NCBI GenBank assembly: GCA_037379345.1
Contig: CM074512.1
Coordinates: 46,893,597 to 46,957,596 of the forward strand
Source of the DNA: Perna viridis
Taxonomy: Eukaryota
Length of the DNA: 64,000 nt
Reading direction: 5' to 3'
Within the stretch, counting starts at the first letter, position 1. The number at the start of each line of letters is the position of its first letter. The notes under the pieces are model-generated. The model was not told the origin of the DNA. It did no database searches and saw nothing but the letters and a program-made list of their open reading frames with translations. Position numbers and translations under genes: made by a program. Below, piece by piece: positions 1,398 through 46,490 of the stretch.

Positions 1398-4300
1398 CTG
1401 AAAGTAAAATTGACAAAGGTTTCATAATAATAATAAATATACATTCTTCTGATGACACAAGTCAATGTTGTTCAAATCAACATTACTCAAAAGGTAAACA
1501 ATTTTATTTAACTATGGAATGTAGACCTCAACCATTTTATTGTCTAATAGTTGATATTAGTAACCGATTGATTTCACGATCACATCAATATTTACACAAT
1601 CTAATTAAAATCAAATGATTTTTTCAGAATCCTGGCACTTTTCCTTTGAATGCTTTCACAAACGTGTAAGCTGAAATATGATTGGCTGATAAGGAAGGTG
1701 ATCCGAACAGAAAGTATAATCATGCGTTACTAGATAGATTCATATCAAGATGTGTACCAGATCTGGGTCTGAAAGTGAAAGACATAAGTGGAATGGATTT
1801 GTTTTACATTGATCATGTGCCAAAGCATATTCTACCGAGGTGCTTACCCGCTGACCTACGCATAATTAGTAAGGAAAATCGAATCTTTGAATATTTAATT
1901 AAAAAAGAAACCTTTCCCAAAATATCCTTGATTTGCCTCAAAGTACGCCTATTTCTCCTCTACGTAACTCAATAGTCAGACTTGTCAGATTATATTTATC
2001 AGATTTATCAGTCTGCAGTATTACAAATTTCGGCATTCCAATGTGAACACGTTGTGCTCCTCTGCTTGCTGAACTATTTCTTCACTCGTATGAGGCTGAC
2101 TTGATCCGAAAGAAAGAATATCGTTTAGCTAGATCCTTTAATCTCAATTTCCGCTATATAGATGATGTATTATCTTTAAATAATCCTAATTTGGGGCATT
2201 TGATACATCGCAGCTACCCCCGAAGAACTTGAGATAAAGGATACTACAGACACTGTGAAGTCAACCTCATATCTTGACCTACACTTAGAAATCGATGGTA
2301 AAGGAAAACTATTGACCAAACTTTACGACAAACGTGATGACTTTTCTTTCAGAATTGTCAACTTTCCTTTCATTTGTGGCAACATCCCTTCAGCACCTGC
2401 GAATGGAGTGTTCATATCACAACTCATACATTATGCCAGAGCTTGCCGAAACCACGCAGACTTTGTATCGCACTAGTATTCTGACAAATAGGCCTTTGGA
2501 ACAGGGTTATGTTGCTACAAGATTGAAGTCATCACTACAGAAGTTTTATGGTCGTCATCATGAATTCGTGGATTGTTATGGTGTATCCATCTGCGCCATG
2601 AAAACTGATTTGTTCAACGTGTCATAGTTTTCCCTTCCTCTTTCATCTACCCCGGACTTGACTTTTTATGAGCAACTCGGCGGGTGTTTCTAGAAAAGCA
2701 GAGGACGCTTGCCCTACCGATGCACTTGGTCCATGCTCCCAGTTTTTAGTGGAGTCCGAGTTGCTCATTTGCTTTTGTTACTTTGTATGTATGATTTTAG
2801 TTACTTTATGTTCTTTGTTGTGTATGTCTGTTTTCCATGTCTGGTCTTTGTCCCTGGATTACTGTCGTTTAATTACCGCTATAACCTTGGTTCCCTTAAT
2901 TACTCTTTCAAAACACATAAAACACTGAGGCTTCATTCCTTGTATCGCATATGGTAGAAACTCTCGGTGATGGATTGGGCTTCTTATTTCGATAGAGTTG
3001 GTTTTGAGCACTTCTTTCATACAACTAAGTTTTGAATTATATGATTTTCCCACACATTTGGTTCTAATGCTGTTGATGAGAAGTTGGCATTGAAACACTT
3101 GTACAGCATATTGAAATATTTACAATATATATAGATTGGTATTTTTTTGTATTTCATTAATAAACATTTCTAAATTCAAAACACTCACTTCTACCTGAGC
3201 TAGGTCTGAAAAGACAGAGTATTTTCTTATTCATTGAGGCAGCCCTACCAATTTCATATCCCACGCCTAGTGATGGTTGAGTTACTTCAGCAATCAACAC
3301 TGAAATTACGAAAAACAAGAAGATGGTTAAGTCCAATCACGGGACTCTCTATAAACAATGATTACAATGAAATAATAAAAAATTATACGAGATAAGACCG
3401 ATCAATGAGATAATTTAGGGTACCGAAGATGCAAAACATTGTAATATGAAAATGCATAATTTCAGCTTCAGGGGCGTATTTATAGAAGATAAAATCATGT
3501 TATTTAACAAGATAATTTTATTTTTTACACCACCATTATAATTTACATTTGAGACACGCATACACGAGGCGAAAGTAGTGCATTAACTGTCTATCTAATA
3601 TTTTAAGATCACATTTAAGAAAAACAGAGCAAAATCAATTCCAGCTTAAACCAATGAGTATAGAAACTTTACTGCGATGTATTAATTATTTTTCATGTGT
3701 ATAAATAATACAAATAAATGAATATTAAACATTAATAAAATTTTACGAGTGTTTTGAAAGATAGCATTTCTTACCATCACATGTCTTTAGGTTCTGTAAA
3801 CAGTAATCATGTGACCATCTACTTCCTTGATTTATTTCATCTGAAAGTCAATAAGTATTATTGTACGGAGACTTGAAGATTGGAACATTCATTTCAATGT
3901 ACTCGAATTTCCCCACTTATGTGATTGTGCTCTTGAGTCGACTGTAGACATTCATGTGACCACTATAATATCTGCGTTTAGATACAGGAAATATGAATAT
4001 TATATCCCCACCGATCATAAAACTAGCATATCAGAACTTTCATCAATTTAGATAAATTCAGTTCATGTTTTATATAATGATCATACTGAAAATAATACAG
4101 CTATTCAAAGACCCCCTGAGGTCAATGCTTTCAAATTTCGTGACTGTTGGAAAATTATTGTCATTAAAGAGGACCAAATCATAGTTGAATCATAGTAAAT
4201 CCACGCTATTAGAATAGTTCAAAAATTCACAGTTGACCAAATATACCACTCACGTTGTTTTGAAATAGGCACGATACATGATTGATTCGAAGGTTGTATG

Positions 4301-7204: not shown

Positions 7205-8585
7205 CTTATCTGTTATTTGATAACATGTATTGCTTTTGGAATAAATTTATTGTTACCATACACACATTCGTACATTAACGCATTTCGACAATTGCAAATT
7301 ATCCAACATATCCAAAATGGGAGTAAAAATCATTTAAATGGAAATACGTTTGAGTCTCATATCAACTCTCCCTACAAATCACTTTTCCAAGATATTGCTT
7401 TAACTCTTCGATGTAAACTCATGAGGATTGTAGATTATGCTTCAAATATCTAACATATATAAGAAAAATTTGCAAAAATACATTTAAATATATTAAAGAT
7501 ATTATTTCAATATACCACAAGTAATTTGCACATCTGAACTTTTCTAGTTTTCCGTTTCTAAGATAAAAGTATTATCTTACCTGAAATTTTGAAATGACCG
7601 TCTTCTTTGCGTGTTTAAGTCGAGATTGGTATTAACATTGATTTTATTATCAATTGTAAATTACTGTCGCAACTAGAAACAGAAGCAAGAGGATCCTTGC
7701 CGTGAAAATAGTTCTATTCACTGTATAATGAACATTATTCAGGTATACAATTTCTTGGCATCTTCCTGTAAACGAAAGAATGATGCATTTTTAATAGAAA
7801 GAATTGGCTATTATAACCGAAGTCTTATTGATAGAGTAATTTTCTCTCATCCAACAATCATATTCACTGTGATAAAGTAATGCTCTTTCTTAGCATTCTG
7901 ATGTTAATATAAGTAAACATTGGTACATGTATATAACTACTCATCTTAGGAAAACAGGGATATAAATTGATTGACATCTCTTTTTACTTATTAACTGAAT
8001 ACTAAATATCAATTATTTCATTGGCACAATCTCGTTCACAATGAATGGGAATGTCCCATATCAATTATGTATAATATTGAGACAAGACAAAGTGAAAAAA
8101 TACTTTACAAATTATATCAATATTTTTTCTTTTTTAACTATAAAACAAAATGTCAAATAAATGCTGGTGTAATAAGAAATACAGAAGCATTTTTCTGTGG
8201 AAATAGTTGAAAATACAGATGTTACTATTCTAAATATATTCTTTCCATGACATAGGGAATGCTTCTTCGGAATGTATATCATGATGTTATGCATATAATT
8301 CTTGCGTTAATATTTCGAATAAAGCCGTTTAGTATTAATATTGACAAAATACCAGGTTGTATAAAAGCATTTGAATTTGATAAACTGGTTTAACCCACAT
8401 TTCATTTTGTAATGCATGTACCAAGTCGGAACCATTGCGGGGGGTTTCCAACTTTCCGGTTTTTACCCCCGTAAAACGATAACTTTCCTTTTGGTCATAA
8501 ATTTTGACTACTGCTTAGATTTCATTTTGTTATTACCCTTCATTATGCAAAACATGGTATATAATATTGATTTTACAACGAAACC

Positions 8586-10102: not shown

Positions 10103-10325
10103 GTCACAAAAACCAGACATGGAAAACAGACATACACATCAAAGTACATAAAAAAAACTAAAATAATACATACAAAGTAATAAAACTAAATGAGCACCTC
10201 GGACTCCACTAAAAAGTGGGAGCATGGACTAGGTGCACCGGTAGGGTAAACGTCATCTGCTTTTCTAGAAACATCCGCCAAGATGCTCCTAAAAAGTCAT
10301 GTCCGTGGTTGACGAAAGAGGAAAG
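10103..10325 (-). repeat. Naiad 3' tail copy
   Basis: Reverse complement of 2630-2850. Confidence 0.8.
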
Positions 10326-10969: not shown

Positions 10970-12150
10970 GAAAATTATCAAACCATGTTCCATCACTTTC
11001 AATGATATATTTGACTACAACGATGACGAACCCCATTGTACTATATCAAAATGAGGTATTAAAAATTGCAAACATGCAACATTCTTATAACCGACTCTTA
11101 CTTCTCTAGTACCCTTACAAACAAACCCTTCCATACAAGAAGTCACGATGACTTAAGTTGCAAATCAACGAACTTAATACATGGATTAGAATGCAACTTA
11201 TGCGGTTTAATATAGGTCGGTGAAACACAAGAACGATTAAACAAAAGAATGTGCTTTCGGGAATAAATACCACCAAATTCCCGATAGTTTATCAACATTT
11301 TAATCAACAAGATCATTCAATCCTCTCTATAAAAGTTCGTATTTTAGAAAAAAATTACCATCCTACGAACAGCCCCGTTCTAAGTAAAAACTATCGTGGG
11401 GAAAGACAGGAGTACTGGATACGCAGACTAGGTACTGCAATACCTTATGGATGCAATCACAACATCAAAAGTATAGAAAACCTTTCAAGCCAATATAACA
11501 AAAGCTTAAATGTGATGAATTTATTTGACAAAGCTCCAAGACGGGAAAGGAGTCATGGCCATCGCCACTATACGTCACCTAAGTTACATGATGTCTCCAT
11601 AGATGGTCTCCTTCCTTTCATACTAAAACCTCTTGGACTTCATCACATTATAACAAAACTCTATTCTACACCTTTCACTCTACTACACTCCCTTTACAAT
11701 ACACGTCTTGACACTCCTGTTTCTGACCCCACCTCAACATTGTACAGACTTGTTGCCATCATTTTGGATATTGGTTTCCACAGACTCTTTAAACCAGTTT
11801 GTGTGAAAAGTCTAGATGAAGAAAAACGATCATTTCTTCCACTACCGTTTGTCAACAAAGTTATAGATGCAATTAATTTGGCTAAAATCCTCCATCACAA
11901 AAACGTTACCAACAAAATTCCCCCATATTTCAAAGACAAATACATACCAATTATTTCATATTCATCTAGTCCATGCTCCCAGTTTTTAGTGGAGTCCGAG
12001 TTGCTCATTTGCTTTTGTTACTTTGTATGTATGATGTTTTGTTATTCAATGTTCTTTGTTGTGTGAGTCTGTTTTCCATGTCTGGTCTTTGTCACTGGAT
12101 TACATTCTTTTGATTACCGCTCTAACCTTGGTTCCCTTGATTACTCTTTC
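10970..12150 (+). mobile_element. Internally deleted Naiad-type element: N-terminal GIY-YIG endonuclease and linker joined directly to the 3' tail
   Basis: K*GIKNCK(T)C...LSCKSTNLIHGLECNLCGLI*VGETQERLNKRM...VYQHFNQQDH...EYWIRRLGTAIPYGCN...PIISYS, then an abrupt switch at ~11965 to the tail seen at 2725-2909. Confidence 0.85.
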
Positions 12151-12744
12151 AAACAATTTACGAGTTATCTTTTAGAAAAGTGAAGATCTCTATTTTGTGT
12201 TGACATTCTATATTTATGCATTATAAATATATCGTACGATAATGTTTTCATCTCCTAGACAGTATGATTTAAGGAGTTTTCTTTGTCTCATCTATAATTT
12301 CTAACATTTCAAGTTTGTGAGCAAAATATTATGTACTTTCACCACTTCCATTTTATCTGAAGTCGACTTCGTCCATCTCAACTATATAAACAATTTGTTT
12401 TTAATTACTTTTCCTATTCATTTCCTATATTACATCGGACATCACATGGGCAACTCTCCTTAAAGTGGTCAGAAGGAATGATAATTACATCGCCAGACGA
12501 GGGAAAATCCATGATAAAAAAAAAGCCGGGAACACCATCAACTAATTGTTACAGAGACTTACACTTAAAATATTTTAAAACATTTCCCAGAAAAACAAAC
12601 AATGTAAGTCATTATCTATTTCTTCAAACTTATTTTATTTTTTTTTATACCATACTTTTTTGTATGTAAGTCATGCGGTGAGCAGTCACTTTTATAAAAA
12701 GACCGACCGGCAACATTCCTCGGATCAATACTAGGATATTATCT

Positions 12745-26630: not shown

Positions 26631-26915
26631 AAAGAGTAATCAAGGAAACCAAGGTTATAGTGGTAATCAAAAGAATGTAATCCAGGGACAAAGACCAGAC
26701 ACGGAAAACAGACATACACAACAAAGAACATAAAGTAACTAAAATCATACATACAAAGTAACAAAAGTAAATGAGCAACTTGGACTCCACTAAAAACTGG
26801 GAGCATGGACCAGGTGCACCGGTAGGGTAAGCGTCCTCTGCTTTTCTAGAAAAACCCGCCGAGTTGCTCATAAAAGTCAAGTCCGGGGTAGACAAACGAG
26901 GAAAGGAAAACTATG
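26631..26915 (-). repeat. Naiad 3' tail copy, nearly complete
   Basis: High identity to 2622-2909; the track ORFs here nearly duplicate those at 2668-2957. Confidence 0.88.
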
Positions 26916-29695: not shown

Positions 29696-30899
29696 ATGAG
29701 TTTCGGATCATTCCTTCTATTGAATTTAATTGCCGCTGTGTTCAGTGCTGGGAAAGAAGGGCAATATGTGAAAGACCTTTGTAAATGTAATATGCAGATA
29801 GGTACGTTTCATATTTTCTTTGCTTTACAATTTACCAAGTTATCAACTGACCTATATTTGTTCATGTAAATGTCTTTGCATTGGTGCAAAAGATGAATAT
29901 TTGAATTTCTCATGTGACATATCTGTGACCATTCTTCGTGTGAAACCAAGTTTAGAAATAAGCTTTAACTTATTCGCAGTATCAAGTAGTTCTTTTGACT
30001 TTTAAATATCAAATAATTTTATATTTACTACGTTGCTGATTTTAGAAAGGACCAGTGCCGTGATAGCGACAGTACGACATACTTTAGATCATTTGGAAAA
30101 GTCGCTATCTTCATTCAAAACATGTGGTATGTAATATCATACAATTATCTACATAAACTACCTAAAATTATAACATGTATTATGGTAAAATAAATAAAAT
30201 CACAACAGTGTATCTTGTCTTGTGTATATATATATATTTACAAACCGGAAATTTCATAATTTCACAACAATGAAATAAGCGCTGTTTTATTATATTCACG
30301 AGGAGTAATTAAACAACGTTTTAAGAGAGAGGCGATCAAACAATCCAATCCTGGTTCATATCCGAATCTCAAATTTACTAAAATAGTTCTTTGAAAGTCC
30401 CAACAAATTTACAATATACTATATACTAAGACATTTTCTTTACTTGTGTATATGTTAATATTTTTTAGTGTATTATATGTTGTAGAACGATGTTTGACGA
30501 ATGCACACAAGGAAAGAAGATATATTTTTCAGCTTCACTATCAAATACTCGATCTCTGAGCGGTAGTCAAACAGTCATTTTCGATTATGTGAACGAAAAT
30601 AGCGGGAAATGCTATAATCCAAATACCGGTAAATTTACAGCAACAAAACAGGGGGTGTACTATTTCACATGTTCATTTATATCAAGTAGTGGTTCAAAAA
30701 CATTACATCTTAGACTGGTCAAGAACAAAAGCACTATTGCTAGAGCAACAGGGTATAATGGTTCACACAGCACAGGAGTTTTGAGCGCCGTTGCGTATTT
30801 AAGGTTGGTGACACAATTGAAGTTCAACATTTTCCTGGAGCCAGTACACAGGCGATTTATGGATCCCATTGGTCTCGGTTTGTTGGATATATGCTGTAA
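29696..30899 (+). pseudogene. Secreted C1q-domain-containing (C1qDC) gene with two frameshifts (pseudogene or assembly error)
   Basis: Exons 29696-29801 (signal peptide MSFGSFLLLNLIAAVFSA), 30046-30126 (short helical stalk) and 30486-30899 (gC1q: IYFSASL...VIFDYVNENSGKCYNPNTGKFTATKQGVYYF...GDTIEV...SRFVGYML*). Needs +1 nt near 30510 and near 30802. TATA upstream, AATAAA at 30927. Confidence 0.85.
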
Positions 30900-31181
30900 T
30901 ATATTTATGCCAGTCTTAAAATATACAATAAATTTTGACTTTATGATTGTTTGGTTGTTTTTTTACGGTTCATTTTCTCATACTTCATGAAATTATATCA
31001 CGCATCTTTTAAGGTATATTTCACAATAAAAAAAGTACTATAGGCTTAAAATTCATATAATGCATGTAACCTGGCCTGCTGCAACGTATAGTAATTCCTT
31101 GTATGTGTTTTACTTGAATATATTTATGGCCTGGCTTACTCTGAACATATTTACCTCGAATTTTTCTGCTATTCATTTTGA

Positions 31182-34079: not shown

Positions 34080-34260
34080 ACCAAAAAATACAACAAACGA
34101 AATACAAGTCACACGAAAAAAAACCACAAACTTGAGAGCACTAACACACGCAGAGAAACCAAACTACACGAACTCCATTAGAAACCGGACGTAAACTCAG
34201 GTTTTCCGTACGGGTAAGAAGTTTCTGCTTCTTGTAAGATACCAGTCGTGTTGCTCGTTG
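34080..34260 (-). repeat. 3' tail of a second Naiad-like family
   Basis: Minus strand GAGCAACACGACTGGTATCTTACAAGAAGCAGAAACTTCTTACCCGTACGGAAAACCTGAG...GGAGTTCGTGTAG; same layout as 2668-2768. Confidence 0.6.
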
Positions 34261-46290: not shown

Positions 46291-46490
46291 AAAGAGTAAT
46301 CAAGAGAACCAACGTTCTAGCGGAAATCAAAAGAAAGCAATCCAGGGACAAAAACCAAACATGGAAAAACAGACATACACAACAAAGAGCTTTAAGTAAC
46401 TAAAATAATACATAAAAAGTTACAAAAGCTAATGAGCAACTCGGTCTCCACTGGAAGCATGAACCAGGTGCATCGGTAGGGTAAGCATTC
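46291..46490 (-). repeat. Naiad 3' tail copy
   Basis: AAGAGTAATCAAG...ATGAGCAACTCGG...CATCGGTAGGGTAAGC. Confidence 0.8.

Follow-up and report, generated by a model that had tools for sequence, protein, structure and literature searches.

The 64,000-nucleotide stretch of Perna viridis DNA analysed here (the window; contig CM074512.1, positions 46,893,597 to 46,957,596, forward strand) carries at 2668–2768 a motif that, as comparison between families indicates, is a conserved, covarying pseudoknotted RNA structure in the 3′ untranslated region (UTR) of one group of Naiads, which are Penelope-like elements (PLEs). The fold is apparently undescribed, and it is the fold that is new, the proposed job being that of the known PLE hammerhead dimers. 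We consider it somewhat probable, from the combined analysis, that the motif is a dimer-dependent self-cleaving ribozyme. To our knowledge, only about ten natural classes of self-cleaving ribozyme have been recognised, so that another fold turning up in the genomes of animals would merit attention.

From the 5′ end, the motif comprises an outer stem (P1), CGGGTG, a palindrome (Pa), the linker RRCAG, five variable bases, the linker GCTYACYC, a second palindrome (Pb), CACCYG, five further variable bases, a purine, a hairpin (P5) and the returning strand of P1. The two five-base variable stretches pair with each other (S2) across the CGGGTG/CACCYG helix (S1), which creates a pseudoknot. All parts of the window copy lie on the plus strand. 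P1 was read directly from the sequence and pairs 2668–2680 with 2756–2768, followed by the 5′ strand of S1 (2681–2686), which pairs with CACCYG in all 24 family representatives described below and has YACY at 2710–2713 as an alternative partner. Next come the 10-nt Pa (2687–2696), the conserved RRCAG linker (2697–2701) and the 5′ strand of S2 (2702–2706), whose partner is 2729–2733. The conserved linker GCTYACYC (2707–2714), a candidate catalytic or triple-forming strand, carries an A>G change at 2711, and Pb (2716–2721; 6–8 nt, ACCGGT in intact copies) is broken by G>A at 2720. After 0–1 nt, a continuous 3′ strand (2723–2733) holds CACCYG (2723–2728, with C>T at 2726) and, directly adjoining it, the 3′ strand of S2. 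P5 (2735–2754), of variable length and sequence, was obtained from a computed fold and is discernible by eye in most families. Since three conserved sites are altered (2711, 2720 and 2726), the 2668 copy is a decayed one.

Sequences for comparison were collected with a spaced motif pattern, which matched at least 122 metagenome stretches, 2 viral stretches and 42 GTDB stretches. With loci of the own genome included, 109 matches fell in loci below 48% GC and 69 in GC-richer loci; the latter are chance matches and were used as controls, which differ in base composition from the 109 AT-rich matches. As true motifs, 41 of the 42 GTDB matches and both viral matches were rejected, being GC-rich and devoid of the structure. 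The sole AT-rich GTDB match (L201), a 407-bp contig of a bacterial assembly with a bivalve-type Naiad reverse transcriptase (RT) end and 3′ end, is probably contamination. From the 109, 24 representatives of distinct families were hand-picked with preference for intact copies, and the statistics given here ignore relatedness among families.

The pattern fixed none of the positions of Pa, Pb or S2. In the 24-row alignment, S1, Pa and S2 together showed 96% paired cells and a covariation of 0.636, which was reached by none of 500 shuffles, while slid-pairing controls paired in 35–43% of cells. Of the six pairs ranked highest by unsupervised mutual information over the anchored columns, without the 3′ half of Pa, four belong to S2 and two to Pb; the three middle pairs of S2 take the first three places, and the Pb pairs come 4th and 6th. 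S2 is paired in 92% of cells, shows two-sided changes at all five pairs and covaries over 23–27 nt; at least four of its five pairs form in 22 of the 24 representatives and 91 of the 109 AT-rich matches, and in none of the 69 chance matches. Two-sided changes likewise occur at all five pairs of Pa, which is a perfect palindrome of at least 8 nt in 22/24 representatives, 68/109 AT-rich matches and 2/69 chance matches. The corresponding counts for a Pb of at least 6 nt are 19/24, 57/109 and 5/69. P1 reaches at least 6 bp in 20 representatives and at least 8 bp in 12 (19 and 1, respectively, of the 69 chance matches). The CAG of the first linker was set by the pattern, and the purine two places before it, which was left unset, is present in 24/24; the second linker was partly fixed by the pattern. 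P5 was left out of the covariation count, having remained unaligned by MAFFT.

An earlier, sequence-only reading had proposed a conserved, covarying RNA structure in a Naiad 3′ tail, and this survives, with the Naiad host confirmed. Its perfect 13-bp stem, which is P1, and the palindrome at 2687–2696 are exact in the sequence. Perfect 13-bp inverted repeats are nevertheless not rare, with 0–6 occurring per simulated 64 kb in 20 simulations, so the case for structure rests on comparison. The letters of two further proposed hairpins are present (AAGC 2696–2699 with GCTT 2707–2710; CTCC 2736–2739 with GGAG 2751–2754), as is ACCGG-TGCAC-CTGGT in the copy at 26.8 kb. The multi-hairpin fold built on two inner hairpins is not supported: across the 24 families it gave 70% paired cells and a covariation of 0.133, equalled by 40 of 500 shuffles. 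Of the suggested GGTG/CACC pseudoknot, the pairing exists, within a 6-bp helix of invariant sequence, but the covarying pseudoknot is a different 5-bp helix (2702–2706/2729–2733); this S2 helix and the second palindrome at 2716–2721 had been overlooked. The second family reported at 34165–34258 is real and shows the outer-stem swap ACACGA/TCGTGT for ACTCGG/CCGAGT, except that it lies on the minus strand, and the CTTACCC said to be kept there from the 2668 copy reads CTTGCCC in the latter. The region 2668–2768 folds better than its shuffles (z −3.8; none of 200 as good). Minimum-free-energy folds were dropped as evidence for the fold, as they vary between copies and miss the pseudoknot.

The two palindromes point to pairing between copies. 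The centre of Pa (letters 4–7) is a palindromic 4-mer in 21 of the 24 representatives, with nine different 4-mers among the 21, and two of the three remaining Pa sequences are 8-nt palindromes read out of register. Their sequence is thus free to vary between families, and self-complementarity through the centre is retained. Median duplex energies are −13.2 kcal/mol for Pa and −10.7 kcal/mol for Pb (controls, −7.0 and −6.6), and as hairpins the palindromes reach 0 to −2.6 kcal/mol. Because they are unable to form stable hairpins, a palindromic loop being of no use to a hairpin and six bases being unable to close one, Pa and Pb are each predicted to pair with their counterpart in another copy of the motif.

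The motif sits in a decayed, 5′-truncated Naiad copy (2030–2908, plus strand) that comprises a coding remnant of the RT C-terminus, ending in a TAG stop codon at 2625–2627, and the 3′ UTR/pseudo-long terminal repeat (pseudo-LTR). Positions 2030–2907 are 90% identical to positions 2518–3409, the 3′ end, of a 3409-bp tandem unit that belongs to a head-to-tail array on contig 3 of the same genome. This array (G000:C3:46030381-46081544) holds ~16 Naiad units with a period of 3409 bp, and the units examined share the same broken pieces of open reading frame (ORF). Section 6 of PMC8557442 sets out a CxC motif and DKA in place of DKG as distinguishing Naiads. Along the 3409-bp unit lie, in order, the zinc finger (nt 404), the endonuclease end (789), CxC (1415), KGPKY (1517), DKA replacing DKG (1793), RT4 (2520) and YIDD (2652), which places the endonuclease N-terminal to the RT, as in Naiads. 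In the decayed unit, the patterns for the GIY-YIG words drew no match, and Pfam recognised none of its decayed protein pieces at a significant level. Partial tandems, i.e. pseudo-LTRs, and frequent 5′ truncation, also Naiad traits, are seen in 132 head-to-tail junctions, variable upstream pseudo-LTRs and dispersed 5′ ends, and most copies of the family share a fixed 3′ end at ~2907 in window numbering. Taken together, these sequence features indicate that the host is a decayed Naiad, in which the motif begins 40 nt past the RT stop codon and ends ~140 nt before the fixed 3′ end.

Beyond this genome, a Naiad RT C-terminus lies 41–383 nt upstream on the same strand in 15 of the 24 representatives. 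The motif is also found in at least 12 of the 54 Naiad consensi in the consensus file of PMC8557442 by text searches, a lower bound because line breaks in the file can conceal matches; four of the 12 were recognised by reading 3′ ends, with no pattern used. Carriers are Clytia 1 and 2, three oysters, Tegillarca, Pinctada, Saccoglossus 1 and 2, Ptychodera 1 and 2 and the fish Chatrabus. All 12 retain both palindromes, S2 and, by eye, the GCTYACYC linker. Their departures from Watson-Crick pairing, counted by eye, are six G-U, one C-A and one A-A; this favours a sense-strand RNA over DNA. The motif is accordingly shared, as far as these consensus sequences show, by Naiads of a cnidarian, bivalves, hemichordates and a fish. 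Among the places listed in the text searches, no Chlamys consensus holds the full motif. Two Chlamys consensi (PMC8557442 supplement, near parts 29 and 31) contain a hairpin closed by GACGGGTG, an echo of S1 without the remaining motif. Six loci (L043, L050, L067, L105, L111 and L135) represent a subtype in which both palindromes and S2 are present, the downstream arm differs and no Naiad protein lies close by.

In the mechanism that we propose, the partner copy would be supplied by a second RNA or, in a tandem transcript, by its other pseudo-LTR. Exchange of strands within the pair would give two complete cores, made up of S1, S2 and the invariant CAG and GCUYAC linkers. The paired copies would then cut the RNA, so that templates of unit length, or able to circularise, would be freed from tandem and read-through transcripts, a release step modelled on the proposal for palindromic hammerheads of other PLEs. 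Because a partner would be needed, lone copies, of which host transcripts contain thousands, would stay silent. A broader claim, about which we are evenly divided, is that the motif represents a new natural ribozyme class, an obligate dimer joined through two loop-less palindromic helices, which occurs in cnidarian, bivalve, hemichordate and fish Naiads in thousands of copies per genome and can take the place of a rearranged hammerhead or twister in the same slot.

Cleavage is suggested first by what occupies that slot in sister elements. By eye, hammerhead cores are found in the same 3′ UTR slot of Naiads from Beroe, Acropora, Pomphorhynchus, nematodes and Clytia (Naiad-3). Several of these (Beroe, Acropora, Pomphorhynchus and Clytia Naiad-3; PMC8557442 supplement) have the order site-GAAA-CUGAUGA, with stem complementarity by eye. 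Mussel and clam Naiads (Mytilus, Gigantidas and Sinonovacula consensi; L422–L441) hold in their 3′ UTR, again by eye, a twister-like core with a palindromic arm. This twister-like motif has 119 pattern matches in the present genome; a decayed copy lies in the window at 8330–8450 (plus strand), and Rfam returned no match for the motif either. The present motif was found at none of 20 twister-like loci, and both hammerhead words occur together near the motif at none of 24 loci (−150/+250 nt) and are absent from the 3′ UTR of the 3409-bp unit. Hammerheads of PLEs have a stem III that is palindromic, and as dimers their cleavage is weak (PMC4209133, PMC6765202); the size, fixed spacings, pseudoknot and invariant linkers of the motif fit the ribozyme-candidate profile in section 17 of PMC10085705. 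The sequence-only reading took Naiads to lack hammerheads, which is right for canonical ones, although sister Naiads hold the hammerhead-like cores just described. Its idea of a hammerhead substitute now leads, given the Naiad host, the covarying structure, the absence of an Rfam match and the slot shared with ribozyme-like cores; its other option, RT priming, is weak because insertions have their fixed 3′ end ~140 nt downstream of the motif.

Several results weigh against a dimer-dependent ribozyme of new fold. S1 is 100% paired and shows zero covariation, its invariance having been imposed by the search pattern, and pairing of GGUG with YACY fits as well as its GGUG-CACC pairing. Nine of the 24 representatives have no Naiad protein nearby, and eight of the nine were rechecked with the same outcome. 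None of the ten non-hammerhead candidates tested in PMC10085705 cleaved, which tempers the odds of catalysis. As Rfam is blind to the twister-like motif, its silence is weak evidence of novelty. Young copies, examined as two samples of 100 that overlap, have dispersed 5′ ends and no sharp site across the motif (~0.2–0.5% per base, with no position above 3). Of 36 tandem-junction loci, including three apparent duplicates, 24 have an upstream pseudo-LTR that covers the motif in full; in 5 it begins within the motif and in 7 downstream of it. One RNA run, of which 19% was read, gave no pile-up of read starts or ends. A weak post hoc excess of truncations at 2675, prompted by a look at 2673–2675, amounted to ~9 of ~35 truncations among 100 listed matches by eye and to 3 of 16 in a script check of 30 loci; it is two- to threefold, borderline after correction and inside helix P1. 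Cleavage may still occur despite the end-mapping negatives, because the proven PAc hammerhead is likewise without read ends (PMC11167929) and the motif would be regenerated by rolling on a religated circle.

In the same RNA run, reads were found on both strands and 68% continued into unlike sequence, consistent with passenger transcription; no motif-bearing indexed sequence is recorded as RNA. Two apparent signals were discarded as artefacts: a pile of loose ends beside GCTTAC disappeared with a reference lacking a private mismatch, and a pile at 2479–2482 in the 5′-end count was the end of the reference copy. At L002:1719-1756, 380 RNA reads and several contigs step back 38 bases at the element 3′ end, i.e. 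repeated tails.

The strongest competitor, which we regard as unlikely, is a non-catalytic dimerisation signal. Much as at a retroviral dimer-initiation site, the palindromes would hold together either a pair of Naiad RNAs or the two pseudo-LTRs within a single RNA; with the element protein bound to the invariant core, two templates would share each complex, and template jumps would lead to tandem and inverted insertions. Such a signal explains both palindromes, the missing cut-site signature and the intact upstream motif in 24 of the 36 junction loci, and is in keeping with a PLE protein predicted to be a dimer and a hammerhead that is dispensable for insertion in vitro (PMC11167929). It leaves unexplained, however, the alternation in this slot with cores of hammerhead-like and twister-like kind, and requires no covarying pseudoknot with fixed 6- and 8–10-nt spacings. 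Moreover, a true PLE hammerhead also lacks a read-end signal (PMC11167929), so the end-mapping negatives favour it little.

The remaining explanations are improbable even jointly. Among them, a monomeric element for RT recognition, priming or RNA stability, with the palindromes as small hairpins, would suit the 3′ UTR position, and retroelement UTR pseudoknots can bind the element protein (R2, PMC6765202). Yet a hairpin needs no self-complementary centre, whereas 21 of 24 Pa centres are palindromic; six-nt palindromes are unable to form hairpins, and insertions that end ~140 nt downstream imply no priming at the motif, all of which leaves this option very improbable. Slightly less credible still is the idea that covariance models overlooked a known class of ribozyme (pistol-, HDV- or twister-sister-like) in strongly permuted form; in its favour, Naiads carry rearranged known classes and Rfam missed one. 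The arrangement AG-pseudoknot-GC is presumably a loose likeness to pistol, and a conserved G-U pair, we assume, one to the ribozyme of hepatitis delta virus (HDV). Against this, the motif has no hammerhead core words, lacks the pistol architecture described in PMC4604425, and gave no Rfam ribozyme match at E≤10 in three scans. Finally, a DNA-level element (a promoter or protein site in the pseudo-LTR, which is known to contain promoters; PMC6765202) or neutral inheritance is extremely improbable, as no palindrome sequence is common across families, S2 covaries over 23–27 nt and G-U pairs are tolerated.

Should the dimer-dependent ribozyme prove true, it would answer how Naiads manage without canonical hammerheads, a question raised by Craig et al. 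2021 (PMC8557442), and would suggest that PLEs repeatedly recruit different ribozymes, with palindromes limiting their action to paired copies. If the motif does not cut, it would still be an undescribed two-palindrome RNA dimer module relevant to the origin of tandem and inverted insertions. At ~100 nt and with clear compensatory pairs, it is suited to in vitro study of both cleavage and dimerisation.

Further copies in the window were located with a covariance model (R1) built from 24 loci outside it, one of which belongs to the same family as the copies at 26805, 2678 and 10224. The model scored these three and those at 34192 and 46461 with E values of 2e-16 to 7e-6. The core at 26805–26861 (minus strand, 60 bits) is the best preserved in the window and, like the decayed core at 10224–10280 (minus strand, 46 bits), belongs to the family of the 2668 copy. 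A second, decayed family is represented by the core at 34192–34248 (minus strand, 41 bits, E ~1e-10), in which S2 is AAACT/AGTTT instead of AGGAC/GTCCA. The copy at 46461–46490 (minus strand, 25 bits) is truncated within the motif, and a very decayed one at 62104–62162 (plus strand, E 0.15) stands upstream of a broken Naiad ORF that runs past the window end; a blastn match at 62026–62322 covers it, and ORF remnants occupy 62843–63999. Across the genome, an exact 30-letter piece of the motif occurs at least 8,382 times (reversed control, 0), and a looser pattern reveals several families (276 matches; control, 0). A 200-kb genomic stretch entered only into the motif scans. A 3153-bp tandem on contig 9 was rejected as an element array, being a duplicated host segment.

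At 11224–12153 (plus strand), an ORF remnant of a Naiad endonuclease region is fused directly to the 3′ half of the motif, i.e. an internally deleted copy. The Naiad 5′ end (first 60 nt of the unit in L418; also L024 and L132) shows a second conserved stem-loop around CTGCTGGTGG...CCCCGAG. By eye it has compensatory changes, and it is a candidate for a structure that serves RT initiation or as a promoter. A 173-aa open frame at 30469–30990 (plus strand) resembles by eye what we take to be a C1q-domain host exon.

As regards novelty, Rfam, a search of which had been suggested as a check, gave no match to any family: at gathering thresholds the window yielded no match, and three short scans drew no ribozyme at E≤10. 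This includes twister-sister, hatchet, hairpin, VS and glmS ribozymes, with the proviso that Rfam can miss permuted forms. Twister has a conserved L4 loop word, a UAA cleavage strand and two pseudoknots; it was rejected because an L4-like word lies near 1 of 24 loci and none lies in the aligned core, with no Rfam match. HDV-like ribozymes, in which J4/2 holds the catalytic C, fold into a nested double pseudoknot (P1-P2-P3-P1.1-P4); by eye, the motif has no P4 or J4/2 between the 3′ strands of S1 and S2 and no conserved P3/L3 hairpin, and Rfam again gave no match. Likenesses to the telomerase template, flavivirus exonuclease-resistant RNA, the selenocysteine insertion sequence (SECIS) and the heat-shock element, the last presumably seen in Pa of the window family, were dropped since covariation points elsewhere. 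SECIS, which is marked by an AUGA/GA quartet with an AA loop in the 3′ UTR of a selenoprotein, was rejected further because other families do not preserve the ATGA at 2668, Rfam gave no match and the 12 carrier consensi lie outside the four selenoprotein Naiads. Retroviral dimer-initiation sites rely for RNA-RNA pairing on a single short variable palindrome, carried by a hairpin loop close to the 5′ end, whereas the motif has two loop-less palindromes that flank a pseudoknot in the 3′ UTR.

The literature covered, which left out most subscription papers and the supplement of PMC10085705, yielded no description of the motif. In the available parts, a 2026 retrozyme preprint names Naiads only as a clade, and Craig et al. 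2021 (PMC8557442) describe SECIS elements and hammerhead core words in Naiads and no such structure. The type SGC non-circularly permuted hammerheads of Eckert et al. 2023 (PMC10085705) illustrate how rearranged ribozymes escape standard searches. The sister Naiad cores have a similar order by eye. That paper bears on the sister motif and not on the present one; apart from one bacterial candidate, its 26 motifs were not recovered from genomes of known organisms. Pistol (Harris et al. 2015, PMC4604425) is likewise small and pseudoknotted with about ten invariant bases, but differs in helix order, in its bacterial and phage hosts and in being monomeric; it was rejected as the motif shows, by eye, neither the pseudoknot from the P1 loop to the P2/P3 junction nor the fixed 2-nt junction at the cut, with no such junction at the analogous place. 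A hammerhead in any permutation, which would carry CUGANGA, GAAA and NUH blocks, was rejected too, with both words at 0 of 24 loci and no Rfam match. The closest system is the minimal dimeric hammerhead of PLEs (Cervera and de la Pena 2014, PMC4209133; Lunse et al. 2017, via PMC6765202): both it and the motif reside in the pseudo-LTR, use a palindrome to pair two copies and would be expected to show weak or no activity as monomers. Compared with it, the motif has no CUGANGA or GAAA core, two palindromes rather than one, a covarying 5-bp pseudoknot and a different set of invariant bases. The motif is not a hammerhead, and in place and design it resembles the dimeric hammerhead of PLEs.

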